DNA of 64,000 bases from Rhodothermales bacterium (GCA_951812585.1 OX638318.1:1794380-1858379); one strand, 5' to 3'; shown: positions 1 through 53,473, numbered from the stretch's first letter. Translations and numbers: made by a program. The notes: generated by a model from the sequence alone, not told the origin.

Positions 1-869
1 TAGATGTTGTTGCGCACACGCTCCTGCAGCATGGGCTCGTAGCGCGCGATCAGGTCAATAAGCGTTTCCGCAATCGGTGTGATCAGGCTCTCGCACGCCT
101 GCGTGATCTCGGCCGTGATGTCGTGCGGTACAAACTTTCCGGCTACCGGCATCTGCACGACGATGCGGCCTTTGGCCTTGCCGACGCGGCCGTGCGTTTC
201 TTTCAGCTGCCGGACCTGTGTTTCGCTGATGCGGGTGGACGGGTATTTTTCGCGGAGAAGGCTGTAGAGCTGTTTGTCCACGGTATCGCCGGCAGTGCGG
301 AGGGTGCGCTGGTCCTCTTCTGTGGGCATGGTGCCATGCATTACGCAGAAGTCGATCGTGCCCGCGCCGATGTCAACGACGCAGGCATTGTTGAGTGCGC
401 CGAGGCTGTAGGCTACGGCAAAGGGCTCCGAAATAACCATGAGCGTGTCCGCGTATTCGCGCACGGCCTCCCGGATGGCCAGCTTATTGGCGGTCAGTGC
501 CTCGGCAGGGACCCCGACCGCGGCATAGATCTTTTGACCTTTTTCTGCCTGGACCAGGTTGATCAGGTGATGAATCAGCTGCCGGACCGCCTCCTCGTCG
601 CGCTGTGTGCCATCGCGTATCACTCCGTATTCCAGCGGGCGCACCAGATCGACCGAAAGGCGGTGGTCAATGGCCTCTGCGCCAAAGATGACCTCTTTCT
701 TCAGCATCTTGCGCGCGATGAAATCCTTGGGCCAGCCGACGAAGCTGTATTCCCAGTGTCGTTGGCCGTTGCTCGCGACGATGGCGCTCCTGGATGTGCC
801 GAGGTCAATGCCGACATGCAGGACCTGTGCTATCTCGCCGTTCTTCTTGCCGGTACTCTTCTCAGACAT
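1..869 (-). CDS. MamK-family (MreB/MamK/Salactin-like) bacterial actin, 3' end truncated by window edge
   Basis: Manual translation from ATG at 869 gives 289 stop-free codons: MSEKSTG...VGIDLGTSRSAI...VGWPKD...PLEYGV...AAVGVPA...VISEPFAVAYSL...VVDIGAGTIDF...GTMPTEEDQRTL.TAGDTVDKQL...ACESL...RNNI. Motifs are colinear with MamK as recalled. Absent from the ORF track because it has no stop inside the window. Confidence 0.88.
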   Translation of the reverse strand, partial: MSEKSTGKKNGEIAQVLHVGIDLGTSRSAIVASNGQRHWEYSFVGWPKDFIARKMLKKEVIFGAEAIDHRLSVDLVRPLEYGVIRDGTQRDEEAVRQLIHHLINLVQAEKGQKIYAAVGVPAEALTANKLAIREAVREYADTLMVISEPFAVAYSLGALNNACVVDIGAGTIDFCVMHGTMPTEEDQRTLRTAGDTVDKQLYSLLREKYPSTRISETQVRQLKETHGRVGKAKGRIVVQMPVAGKFVPHDITAEITQACESLITPIAETLIDLIARYEPMLQERVRNNI

Positions 870-1153
870 AGTGCCAGTGGTGTAATAGTCGGCTCAATGT
901 GCGTACACCCACCAAATGAAGCCACGCTCAAAAGATACAAAGAATTACATGTCTCCAAGTCTCGGGCGAGTGCACGTCAGGTCCAGCCGTGCACTGACTG
1001 TCGCAGCGGCAGGCCGGGCGTATGCTGCCAGAGCGCCACTGCTTGTATCTCCGGGCATGCGCGTCCTATGCCAGGCTCTGCGAACGGCACTGGCCGGTGC
1101 TCCTCCTGCAGGATAGCACAGCGAATGGGTGCGCCCGGCGGTGCCCAACCGGC

Positions 1154-2257
1154 TCACTTGGCGCGGCCGGCGTGCTTGGACGGAAGCGACGTTCCGATCA
1201 CGGCAGAAGATCGGGTGGTTTTCTCCTCCTGAATGCCCGCGGCAGCGGCGGCATAGTGCAAGATGCCATCAAACAGTGCCGTGGCGATCCGCTCGCGATA
1301 CTCGTCTGAAAACAGCCGCTTTTCGTCTGGCAAATGGTTGATGACAGCAATCTCTGTCAGGATGGCAGGGACAGCCATCTCTCCCATCGCGTCGCCGCGC
1401 TGCCACCGATTCGACAGCACGGAGAACGGTCCGCCCTTGACGCCCCAGTTTTCCACCAAAGGATTGACTTCGCTGATGGCCTCATAGAGCGACGATTGCA
1501 CGGCCTCGGCAAAACGAATGGACTCTTGTCGCTTCACGGTGCTGGCCAGCGCCCGCAGATGGCCGCGCCACTCCGCGATCGTGAACCCGGAGTTGACGTT
1601 TTCGCGCATGGCAAGGCGCTCTGCCGCGGCCGTGCCGCGCGTACTGAAATAGAACGTCTCAATGGTGGACTTCGGATTGGTTTCTAAGGCATTCACATGA
1701 ATGGACAGCAGTATGTCCGCACGTTTGGCCACGGCGAAGGCTACGCGCTCCTTCAAAGTCAGCGTCGTATCAGCGTTACGCGTCAGCCAGACTTCAAAGC
1801 CGTATCGCTGCAGCTTGCGCTCGAGCCGAAGCGCAACATCCAGGGCAACCGTTTTCTCGGTCAATCCCGAAGTTCCTACCGCACCCGGGTCTTTCCCGCC
1901 ATGGCCGGGGTCCAAGACGATGGTCTGGATGCCCAGACCATAGACGCTCGCCAGCGGAAGGTCGGCATCCAGCGACGGGTCGGCGTCCAACGACGGGCCG
2001 GTGGCCAGCGTCTCTAAACCAGTCTCGTATGCCGAGCGAATCGGCTCTGCCGCCCGCAGTGGTTCTTCGCTAAGGAGCGCCGTCTCAGGCGGATAGGCCC
2101 CGATACCGCCAAAGATGGCTGCAAGAAAGGCGGCGAAGATAAACGTGCGGTTGGCAAGCGACGCCCGGGGCGCGGCCACCGCACGCTGGATGCCCCGGTT
2201 ATCTTCGTAGACCTCCTTCAGCAGTGTGGCCCGAGCTTTGGGTCGCTTTCCGATCAT
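1154..2257 (-). CDS. N-acetylmuramoyl-L-alanine amidase (Amidase_3) with N-terminal membrane anchor
   Basis: IVLDPGHGGKDPGA, EKTVAL, LLSIHVNA and AILTE zinc-amidase motifs; hydrophobic stretch near the N-terminus. Confidence 0.92.
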   Translation of the reverse strand: MIGKRPKARATLLKEVYEDNRGIQRAVAAPRASLANRTFIFAAFLAAIFGGIGAYPPETALLSEEPLRAAEPIRSAYETGLETLATGPSLDADPSLDADLPLASVYGLGIQTIVLDPGHGGKDPGAVGTSGLTEKTVALDVALRLERKLQRYGFEVWLTRNADTTLTLKERVAFAVAKRADILLSIHVNALETNPKSTIETFYFSTRGTAAAERLAMRENVNSGFTIAEWRGHLRALASTVKRQESIRFAEAVQSSLYEAISEVNPLVENWGVKGGPFSVLSNRWQRGDAMGEMAVPAILTEIAVINHLPDEKRLFSDEYRERIATALFDGILHYAAAAAGIQEEKTTRSSAVIGTSLPSKHAGRAK

Positions 2258-2332
2258 TGGAGTGCTGCGGGCGCGTGGTTGCGAATCCCTGCGAAGGAAT
2301 TGTTGTCAGAACTTTGAGTTATTGCCCGACGG

Positions 2333-3226
2333 CTAGACTGCTATGGGTGCTGCGATAGCCGGATGGTGGCGGTAGCCGTGCAGGGCAAAGTCTTCATATG
2401 TGTATTCAAAGATGGAGGCAGGTTTCCGCGTGATTTGCAGGGTGGGTAATGAATAGGGTGAACGGCCCAGTTGTTCCCTGACCTGATCCAGGTGATTCAG
2501 GTAGGTGTGCGCGTCCCCTATGGTATAGACCAGCTCGCCCGGCACCAGATCCAGCTGATGCGCCACCATGTGCGTGAGCAGCGCATACTGAGCGATGTTG
2601 AACGGGGCACCCAGAAAAAGGTCGTTGGAGCGCACATACAACTGGCACGACAGCCGACGCTTCGCCGCATAGAACTGGAAGAACATGTGGCAGGGTGGCA
2701 GAGCCATCTGCGGCGTCTCGGGCGGGTTCCAAGCGCTGACCACATGGCGGCGGCTAAACGGCTGCGTCCGCAAACTGTCGATAACCGCTGCGATCTGATC
2801 CGTCCCCCCGAAGCTTCTCCACTGTTGGCCGTAGACCGGGCCAAGGGCACCCTGTTCGGCGGCGAAAGCCGCGTCATCGCGAATTCGAGCCTCGAACGAA
2901 TGCATGAGCGCCTTCCATTCGGCACTGTCGGAGGGCGGAACCGGCTGCCCCGTCTGTTCCAGATAGCGCTGCAGTGGCCAGGCCGTCCAGATGGAGATCC
3001 TCTGGTCGACTAGCGGCTTGATATTCGTACTGCCCGAAAGGAACCAGAGCATTTCGCACGCCAGACCACGAAACCACACGCGCTTGGTGGTGCACAGCGG
3101 GAACCCCGCTGCAAGGTCGAACCGCATCTGGTGGCCAAATACGCTGAGGGTACCGGTGCCGGTCCGATCTTCCCTACGGACACCCTCATCCATGACGCGC
3201 TGAAGCAAGTCGAGGTATACTTTCAT
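2333..3226 (-). CDS. thyA: thymidylate synthase (long, small-domain insertion type)
   Basis: [38 protein letters not shown] motifs. Confidence 0.98.
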
Positions 3227-52567: not shown

Positions 52568-53473
52568 TTACAAGCCCAGAAGGTACGGCCGGGGGTCCTG
52601 CGCCAGTCCATTGTTCCAGATTTCAAAGTGCAGATGCGGGCCTGTGGTAAGCTGTCCCGTGTTGCCGCTCACGGCCACGCCTTCCCTTAGCTGCACGCGG
52701 TCGGCGACATCCTTGAGCAGGCGCTGGTTGTGCTTGTACACGGTGATGAAGCCATCGGCATGCTGCACGATGATGGTGTTGCCGCCGCTGTGCGTCCAGT
52801 CCGAAAAGATGACATGTCCTTCCCCGATGCTGCGCACGATCTTTCCTTCCTCGGTGGCGATATCCAAGCCATAGTGGCCTGTGCGCGCATTGAATGGTTG
52901 CGTCGTATAGCCGCTGACTGGGGTGATGGCGGGCAACAGCATACTAGGCGGCCGCGGCCGCGAATCGTACGATTCGGCCTCCATGGACGCAGGCCGAACA
53001 GAGAAGCGCTCCAAGAAGACGGCGGGCTGCTCATGGTCGGACCAGTCATCGGAAGGCAGTGCGTCGGACACTTCCAGGGGTCCGTACACTGCGCTCAGCG
53101 GTTCATCCATGTCCGCGGGTGCGGTCAGCGTGCTGTCGACTTGGCCTGTCAGGATCTGCTGCAGGTGCGTAACGTACTGGATCTGCATATCGACGGAGTC
53201 CTGGAGCGCCTGCACGCGCATCAATGCTGCAATCGTGCTGCTCCGAAGCGACTCCGTGCCGTAACCCGGGATGAGGTTGCGCACCGGCGTAAAGACCACG
53301 AAAAGCACTGGAACCAGCACCAGCACGCCGCACACTATCAAGGCGGCACGCCGCGCCGCTTGGGCCTGCACATCGTACCAGCGCTGCTGCGTCCCCTTCA
53401 TATCAATGAACATGATGCGCCGCGGCGCGGATCGCCCGAAAAGCTCAGAAGCAAACGCAAACAGCTCTTTCAT
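52568..53473 (-). CDS. M23 family metallopeptidase
   Basis: HYGLD, GNTIIVQH, YKHN, GNTGQLTTGPHLHFE. Confidence 0.95.
   Translation of the reverse strand: MKELFAFASELFGRSAPRRIMFIDMKGTQQRWYDVQAQAARRAALIVCGVLVLVPVLFVVFTPVRNLIPGYGTESLRSSTIAALMRVQALQDSVDMQIQYVTHLQQILTGQVDSTLTAPADMDEPLSAVYGPLEVSDALPSDDWSDHEQPAVFLERFSVRPASMEAESYDSRPRPPSMLLPAITPVSGYTTQPFNARTGHYGLDIATEEGKIVRSIGEGHVIFSDWTHSGGNTIIVQHADGFITVYKHNQRLLKDVADRVQLREGVAVSGNTGQLTTGPHLHFEIWNNGLAQDPRPYLLGL

Follow-up and report, generated by a model that had tools for sequence, protein, structure and literature searches.

The window, the whole 64,000-nucleotide stretch analysed here (C1:1794380–1858379), belongs to a Rhodothermales genome assembled as a single contig of 3.2 Mb with 60% G+C and 95.7% completeness. 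At its left end the minus strand carries a MamK-like actin gene (1..869, codons 1–289 of 346), supported by the open reading frame, family scores, alignment with solved structures, an AlphaFold2 model, and ATP-binding motifs. The frame opens with an ATG at 869, contains no stop codon (window 3..869), encodes 289 residues inside the window, and runs past the left edge. The remaining 57 codons lie to the left at C1:1794208–1794379, so that the complete gene, encoding 346 residues, spans C1:1794208..1795248 (L002:18209–19249 on the minus strand of L002, a 20-kb stretch read leftward).

The encoded protein includes the motifs GIDLGTS (residues 20–26), VGWPKD (44–49), PLEYGV (78–83), AAVGVPAEALTANK (116–129), SEPF (147–150), VDIGAGT (165–171), GTMPTEEDQRTLRTAG (179–194), and AGKFVPHDIT (243–252). 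Residues 10–345 align without a gap to the MamK of PDB 5LJW/5JYG, and each of these motifs is colinear with its MamK counterpart, as expected from the original prediction of a stop-free minus-strand frame with actin-fold motifs. The ATP motifs GIDLGTS, SEPF, DIGAGTxD, and AGGGS are intact, and the alignment of the whole family shows no variation in the phosphate-1, connect-1 (SEPF, with the catalytic Glu), phosphate-2, and adenosine motifs. A plus-strand frame of 369 residues (123..1232) overlaps the gene. A Pfam search with this frame returned no match, whereas the minus-strand product matches the NCBIfam MamK model with E = 1.5e-117; the minus-strand gene is therefore the real one, and the frame at 123..1232 is a spurious antisense artefact of G+C-rich DNA.

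Upstream of the actin gene on the same strand lie the gene of an Amidase_3 protein (1154..2257, minus strand) and, directly upstream of that, thyA, encoding thymidylate synthase (2333..3226, minus strand; TIGR03284, 385 bits). To the left of the window are folA, bshA on the other strand, and a gene for an outer-membrane protein, with no mam gene among them; the actin neighbours are thus thyA, the amidase gene, folA, and bshA. The folA frame (L002:17664–18224, minus strand, with a called TTG start) overlaps the actin stop by 16 nt. An overlap of 12–13 nt recurs in relatives, suggesting that in this lineage folA is coupled to the actin gene in translation.

The amidase and actin genes are separated by an unusually long spacer of 284 nt, counted from stop to start (870..1153, minus strand): the gap is mostly −44 to +60 nt in relatives, and 284–1755 nt in the window genome and its closest relatives. 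In two of these loci (L006:4262–6000 and L007), a degenerate transposase in two frames on the opposite strand, which we take from its sequence to be IS1595-like, lies between the amidase and actin genes, and the flanking genes are intact. These long gaps and the insertion remnant indicate that translational coupling of the amidase and actin genes is not obligatory. A search of the 284-nt spacer against Rfam gave no match, no consensus promoter or terminator was found in it, and comparison with L005, the closest relative, showed no conservation of the spacer. We therefore set aside an RNA element, promoter, or terminator in this spacer.

The locus (window 1–2300) is present almost verbatim in sponge metagenome runs and in runs labelled with one host organism. 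Because sponge metagenomes carry it nearly unchanged, the bacterium is probably a sponge associate. None of the RNA runs searched for the locus carried it.

Architecture of the partner amidase

The partner gene (1154..2257, minus strand) encodes a predicted single-pass (bitopic) N-acetylmuramoyl-L-alanine amidase of 367 residues, as judged from Pfam, gene linkage, and the AlphaFold2 model. The Amidase_3 domain of Pfam covers residues 113–333 (142 bits). Along the orthologues in our alignment (A1), the order is the same: a tail, a basic linker, a hydrophobic helix, a variable acidic or proline-rich linker, and the catalytic domain. The AlphaFold2 model has helices at residues 7–26 and 35–49, a disordered segment at residues 50–110, and a confident catalytic domain at residues 112–340, in which pLDDT mostly exceeds 90 but is low at residues 220–235.

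The putative cytoplasmic N-terminal helix (residues 7–26; 2180..2239, minus strand) is supported by the model and by motif conservation. It holds the tail motif LLKEVYEDN (residues 12–20; 2198–2224, minus strand), for which alignment A1 gives the consensus [IL]LxxVYEDN, with Asn20 invariant and Leu13 nearly so. The motif is found in every full-length partner amidase, is doubled in Roseithermus and in L035, and is degenerate and still recognisable in distant members of the clade (VLRAVGEDN and LLQQAVYNN). In a six-frame scan of the window genome, the amidase tail was the sole match to the motif. The tail is followed by a single predicted transmembrane helix at about residues 38–55 (2093..2146, minus strand), placed by the sequence, by model helix 35–49, and by a hydrophobic stretch whose position is conserved in A1. 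Basic residues precede this helix and acidic residues follow it, which points to an N-in topology with the tail in the cytoplasm and the enzyme in the periplasm.

The putative periplasmic catalytic domain (residues 112–340; 1238..1924, minus strand) is delimited by invariant columns of A1 and by the model. His119, Glu134, His187, and Glu302 are invariant in A1 and are candidate metal-binding or catalytic residues. AmiA, AmiB, and AmiC are autoinhibited division amidases. The domain is about 229 residues long, compared with 226–228 in AmiA and AmiB and 175–186 in amidases that lack the insert. After the LAxxEN motif it has an insert of the length found in AmiA/B/C, modelled with low confidence, which should be an autoinhibitory helix. 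The best structural matches are Escherichia coli AmiC (4BIN), E. coli AmiA (8C2O), and Bartonella AmiB (3NE8). By Pfam domain, invariant residues, length, and fold, the catalytic domain is thus of the AmiA/B/C type. The protein has neither a signal peptide nor an AMIN domain; it carries the cytoplasmic tail and one transmembrane helix instead. The genome encodes five Peptidase_M23 (LytM-type) proteins. One of the five genes lies in the window at 52592–52879 (minus strand), about 50 kb from the amidase gene.

Family assignment of the actin

The actin scores 392.4–393.5 bits against the NCBIfam MamK model (NF040964), just under the curated cut-off of 400, 205.7 bits against the BeeR model (NF053558; cut-off 530), and 80.3 and 68.3 bits against the MreB models (cut-offs 293 and 366). 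In the sample of 151 genomes from the order, NF040964 finds a match in 56, of which 36 score above 400 bits (maximum, 434 bits). Among broad Pfam models only MreB_Mbl matches (63 bits). Against the sequences of solved structures, the actin scores 248 bits with MamK (5LJW, 5JYG, and 5LJV), 133 bits with BeeR (8R2N), and 52 bits with Caulobacter MreB. Its gapless alignment covers residues 5–340 of 5LJW, consistent with a MamK-like architecture free of insertions, and identity is 38% to the AMB-1-like Magnetospirillum MamK and 43% to the MamK of Magnetospira QH-2. About 16 residues precede the actin core, compared with the disordered N-terminal extension of 30–50 residues that characterises BeeR.

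The AlphaFold2 model of the actin (pLDDT 89.5) superimposes best on the MamK filament subunit 5LJV (TM scores of 0.90/0.96 and rmsd of 1.4 Å), followed by BeeR and then by MreB or actin at a TM score of about 0.78. Sequence models, alignment, and structure thus agree with the original prediction of a MamK-family protein that MreB fits less well, and place the actin far nearer MamK than MreB. We conclude that the protein is an actin-fold ATPase of the MamK superfamily and a real relative of MamK. Its conserved motifs and its match to the filament conformation suggest that it would polymerise with ATP into double-stranded filaments. The residue at the MamK A278D site, which we take to be a known non-polymerising position, was considered as a further clue and discarded as uninformative: it is Glu here, and Glu in the MamKs of Magnetococcales and Nitrospinota too.

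A search of 1.84 billion representative proteins returned just 164 with E ≤ 1e-30, which shows the MamK/BeeR superfamily to be small. In a maximum-likelihood tree built from 106 sequences, clades are formed by the magnetosome MamKs (27 rows, all named MamKs; SH-aLRT 99) and by BeeR (SH-aLRT 97), and our actin falls in a separate clade of 16 rows (SH-aLRT 99), which also takes in every Rhodothermales sequence, one Thermodesulfovibrionales MAG (L052), and the representatives P0241, P0242, and P0306. Thirty-three positions are fixed in this amidase-linked clade yet differ in the magnetosome MamKs; residues specific to the clade include Trp39, Trp46, Phe50, Glu123, Leu125, and Arg133. The separate, supported clade and these discriminating positions show that the actin belongs to the MamK superfamily and is not an orthologue of magnetosome MamK; its clade is a distinct sister of the magnetosome MamKs.

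The tree also contains fused proteins. P0292 (768 residues), inside the magnetosome-MamK clade, joins a complete FtsZ (Tubulin and FtsZ_C, residues 4–307) to a C-terminal MamK domain. A further clade of fusions (P0248, P0254–P0256, P0259, P0261, P0262, P0264, P0267, P0268, P0270, P0278, and P0279; SH-aLRT 99) comprises proteins of 500–1232 residues with a C-terminal MamK-like actin domain and 190–900 N-terminal residues that have no Pfam match.

For the genome context we used the magnetosome cluster of Magnetospira QH-2 (L058; mamI-E-J-K-L-M-N-O-P-A-Q-R-B-S-T) as a yardstick and compared all of its proteins with the whole single-contig genome by tblastn. The only specific match was the actin. 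Beyond it, the search picked up three HtrA proteases at scattered sites, TPR proteins, a LemA gene at a distance of 1.6 Mb, and a weak match of 70 residues to MamB (of the cation-efflux type). MamI, MamL, MamM, MamN, MamP, MamS, MamT, MamF, and MamH had no match anywhere in the genome with the QH-2 queries. The absence of magnetosome genes, first noted for the window, therefore extends beyond its left edge and, by this search, to the genome, and we reject a magnetosome cluster there. A genuine mreB followed by mreC lies at C1:574689–576547, 1.2 Mb from the actin gene. Neither an mreC or mreD gene after the actin gene nor a magnetosome cluster outside the window, the two findings that would have spoken against the original family assignment, was encountered, so that assignment stands.

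These data bear on two readings of the protein that its name alone would invite. That it is a true magnetosome MamK, either left behind when a magnetosome island was lost or belonging to a cluster at another place in the genome, would account for its family-level likeness to MamK. This reading is barely conceivable, however, given that none of the named MamKs of magnetotactic bacteria falls in its clade, that the only other mam matches in the genome are the weak MamB stretch and the scattered generic HtrA, TPR, and LemA proteins, and that the locus is syntenic housekeeping DNA in 51 genomes. Public databases name the homologues either "MamK family actin-like protein" or "rod shape-determining protein MreB" (JGI and NCBI), and the latter label, which is frequent, together with MreB_Mbl as the only broad Pfam model to match (63 bits), would favour a second MreB-type shape protein. 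We consider this very improbable, since the protein reaches 80 bits on the MreB models (cut-offs 293–366) against 392 on MamK, since a canonical mreB–mreC pair exists elsewhere in the genome, and since the TM score is 0.90 to MamK and 0.78 to MreB; with these scores and the separate mreB–mreC we discard canonical MreB. Both public names mislead on function, and the MreB name is wrong.

Pairing and joint loss of the actin and the amidase tail

The original prediction named another organelle, DNA, or a wall enzyme as possible clients of the filament and left the choice among them open; it missed the partner, which is the next gene upstream in the window, the Amidase_3 gene at 1154–2257 (minus strand). 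An Amidase_3 gene lies directly upstream of the actin gene in all 51 related loci with readable upstream DNA, which include Rhodothermales MAGs, the cultured Roseithermus sacchariphilus MEBiC09517 (L031), Salinibacteraceae, and Rubricoccaceae. The pairing holds with or without thyA and folA nearby: these two genes bracket the pair in part of the order, with thyA adjacent in about 28 of the 51 loci and absent in the rest. In the distant members P0241, P0242 (an Acidobacteriota MAG), and P0306, the actin gene likewise follows an Amidase_3 gene, whereas in the neighbouring clades represented by P0245 and P0251 the actin has other neighbours and no adjacent amidase. Within Rhodothermales no third conserved gene accompanies the pair, and no ParR/parC-like partner was found.

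We also considered a prophage lysis cassette and a defence system and rejected both: the locus is syntenic housekeeping DNA that gave just weak generic PHROG endolysin and partition matches (the "partition protein" match scores 46 bits) and one marginal PADLOC match.

Across an even sample of 401 genomes from the phylum, the actin is confined to the window's own order. In the order sample of 151 genomes, it occurs in 56, once in each, across 31 of the 73 genera. The following counts come from phylogenetically non-independent genomes: (i) an adjacent Amidase_3 gene was found in all 16 actin-bearing Rhodothermales genomes checked; (ii) the tail motif was present in 7 of the 7 of these in which the full amidase N-terminus was inspected, an eighth (G522) being truncated where its contig stops and the remaining eight having been checked for adjacency only; and (iii) the motif was absent from all 18 actin-less genomes whose amidases were inspected, most of which have an amidase of the signal-peptide/AMIN type. 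The difference can be seen within one genus, in which G430 and G440 have the actin and G418, which lacks it, has the AMIN-type enzyme only.

In the family of the window organism (f1), a survey of 5 whole genomes (two genera) found no Amidase_3 besides the tailed enzyme, and the AMIN-type Amidase_3 of other Rhodothermales is absent from the window genome and from G284, G300, G324, and G328 (all f1). One genus of this family, represented by G468, lacks the actin, and its syntenic amidase gene is followed directly by folA and bshA. In this single deletion event, the amidase kept its membrane helix and lost exactly the 22 residues that carry the tail motif, together with part of the LAxxEN region. 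The co-occurrence counts and this joint loss indicate that the tail and the actin appear and vanish together.

Proposed mechanism and comparison with known systems

We propose that the filament docks the amidase through its tail and so positions wall cleavage, a reading that we consider probable. The MamK-superfamily actin would polymerise beneath the membrane in an ATP-dependent manner, and the filament would bind the cytoplasmic tail (the first ~25 residues, with [IL]LxxVYEDN) of the inner-membrane amidase. The filament would thereby fix or move the site at which the periplasmic AmiA/B/C-type domain cuts peptidoglycan cross-bridges. The likeliest such site would be the septum, where the wall is split and daughter cells separate; daughter-cell separation is the process favoured because f1 has no AmiA/B/C-type amidase other than the tailed enzyme. 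In this family the tailed enzyme appears to have replaced the usual AMIN-domain division amidase, and it may be activated in the periplasm by one of the five M23/LytM proteins. Filament formation, direct binding between tail and filament, and a role in cell separation are the three postulated steps. The linkage of the genes and the joint loss would be compatible, too, with two proteins that share a pathway and never touch.

A bolder form of the proposal, which we offer more tentatively as a possibility short of probable, describes a trans-envelope device: a cytomotive MamK-type filament would grip the tail of the AmiC-like amidase and carry or park the enzyme, fully replacing AMIN targeting in this sponge-associated Rhodothermales family, in which case the magnetosome MamK system would represent a sister specialisation of this client-docking actin.

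MamJ and MamY act as adaptors for MamK, and M23/LytM proteins are the usual periplasmic activators of amidases. The actin and the amidase could serve one process through a regulatory link, either with the amidase as an adaptor whose tail anchors or nucleates the filament at the membrane, or with the filament switching on the periplasmic enzyme. This reading draws on the same pairing and tail data as positioning does, and nothing in them separates positioning from activation; the length of the catalytic domain, as in the autoinhibited AmiA/B/C enzymes, and the loss in G468 of the tail together with a piece of the regulatory region would suit it. With five M23/LytM proteins in the genome, however, a cytoplasmic switch is unneeded, and we regard a regulatory link as rather unlikely. 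Less likely again is an actin with an unrelated job (on DNA, a storage granule, or another organelle) that merely shares an operon with the amidase. Other clades of the MamK superfamily do have other neighbours, BeeR and saltatorellin are MamK-like actins of no known function in non-magnetotactic bacteria (PMC11929497; 10.1101/817700), and there is the weak PHROG "partition protein" match. Against this, actin and amidase stay paired in at least two phyla while the remaining neighbours vary, the tail motif is found only in company with the actin and is lost with it, and neither a third conserved gene nor a ParR/parC-like partner was found. Docking of the amidase on the filament remains the reading that we prefer.

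Our literature search found no paper joining MamK and an amidase in such a module, and as far as we searched a module of a MamK-type actin and a tailed amidase is unpublished. New here are the Rhodothermales census, the loss of the canonical amidase in f1, and the natural deletion of actin plus tail. If docking is correct, hydrolases would be controlled here in a new way, by a dedicated actin with a hold on the cytoplasmic tail of an amidase; bacterial actins would gain a new job, and the MamK lineage would not be tied to magnetosomes. Hundreds of public proteins named "MreB" or "MamK" would need re-annotation. The module occurs in about a third of the sampled Rhodothermales species and in the cultured R. 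sacchariphilus MEBiC09517, and is hence testable at the bench.

In known bacteria, AMIN domains and LytM activators direct the division amidases from the periplasmic side, and we know of no case in which the E. coli division amidases touch the cytoskeleton. The E. coli AmiA/B/C–EnvC/NlpD system (4BIN, 8C2O, and 8C0J) has a similar catalytic domain, but its amidases are soluble in the periplasm and rely on AMIN domains for targeting. An actin homologue that governs the site of a hydrolase has a precedent in Bacillus subtilis, in which MreBH, in work by Carballido-Lopez and colleagues in 2006, reportedly directs the wall hydrolase LytE. LytE, however, is a secreted D,L-endopeptidase without a cytoplasmic tail, and the two genes are unlinked.

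The MamK of Magnetospirillum (5LJV, 5LJW, and 5JYG) shares with our actin its length, fold, ATP motifs, and C-terminal PxxYW, at 38% identity and without gaps. It differs in (i) forming a clade of its own, (ii) lying among magnetosome genes, and (iii) having MamJ, MamY, and McaAB as partners, whereas the actin described here is partnered with a peptidoglycan amidase and has 33 clade-specific positions. BeeR of Verrucomicrobiota (PDB 8R2N) is a MamK-related actin that polymerises in a non-magnetotactic host and has no known function or client (PMC11929497), and saltatorellin of Saltatorellota is a MamK-related protein that forms filaments in E. coli and Magnetospirillum, likewise with no known function or client (10.1101/817700). 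BeeR differs from our actin (206 bits and ~30% identity) in its insertions, its disordered N-terminal extension, and its own clade, and no amidase partner has been reported for BeeR or for saltatorellin, the latter compared here by its published description.

Closest in function to the proposed pair are FtsA with FtsN and BacA with LmdC. The logic of an actin fold that grips a tail is known from cell division, in which FtsA binds a short N-terminal cytoplasmic peptide of the bitopic division protein FtsN (10.1101/2021.11.08.467742). In the Rhodothermales module the actin is not FtsA, and the amidase itself carries the tail. In Hyphomonas neptunium the bactofilin BacA works with the M23 endopeptidase LmdC, which is bitopic and has a cytoplasmic tail (PMC10945521). 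The likeness to our proposal lies in a cytoplasmic polymer and a single-pass, tailed peptidoglycan hydrolase, with wall cleavage steered from inside the cell. The two differ in both components: the Hyphomonas polymer is a bactofilin that uses no nucleotide, and its hydrolase is an M23 enzyme and not an Amidase_3.
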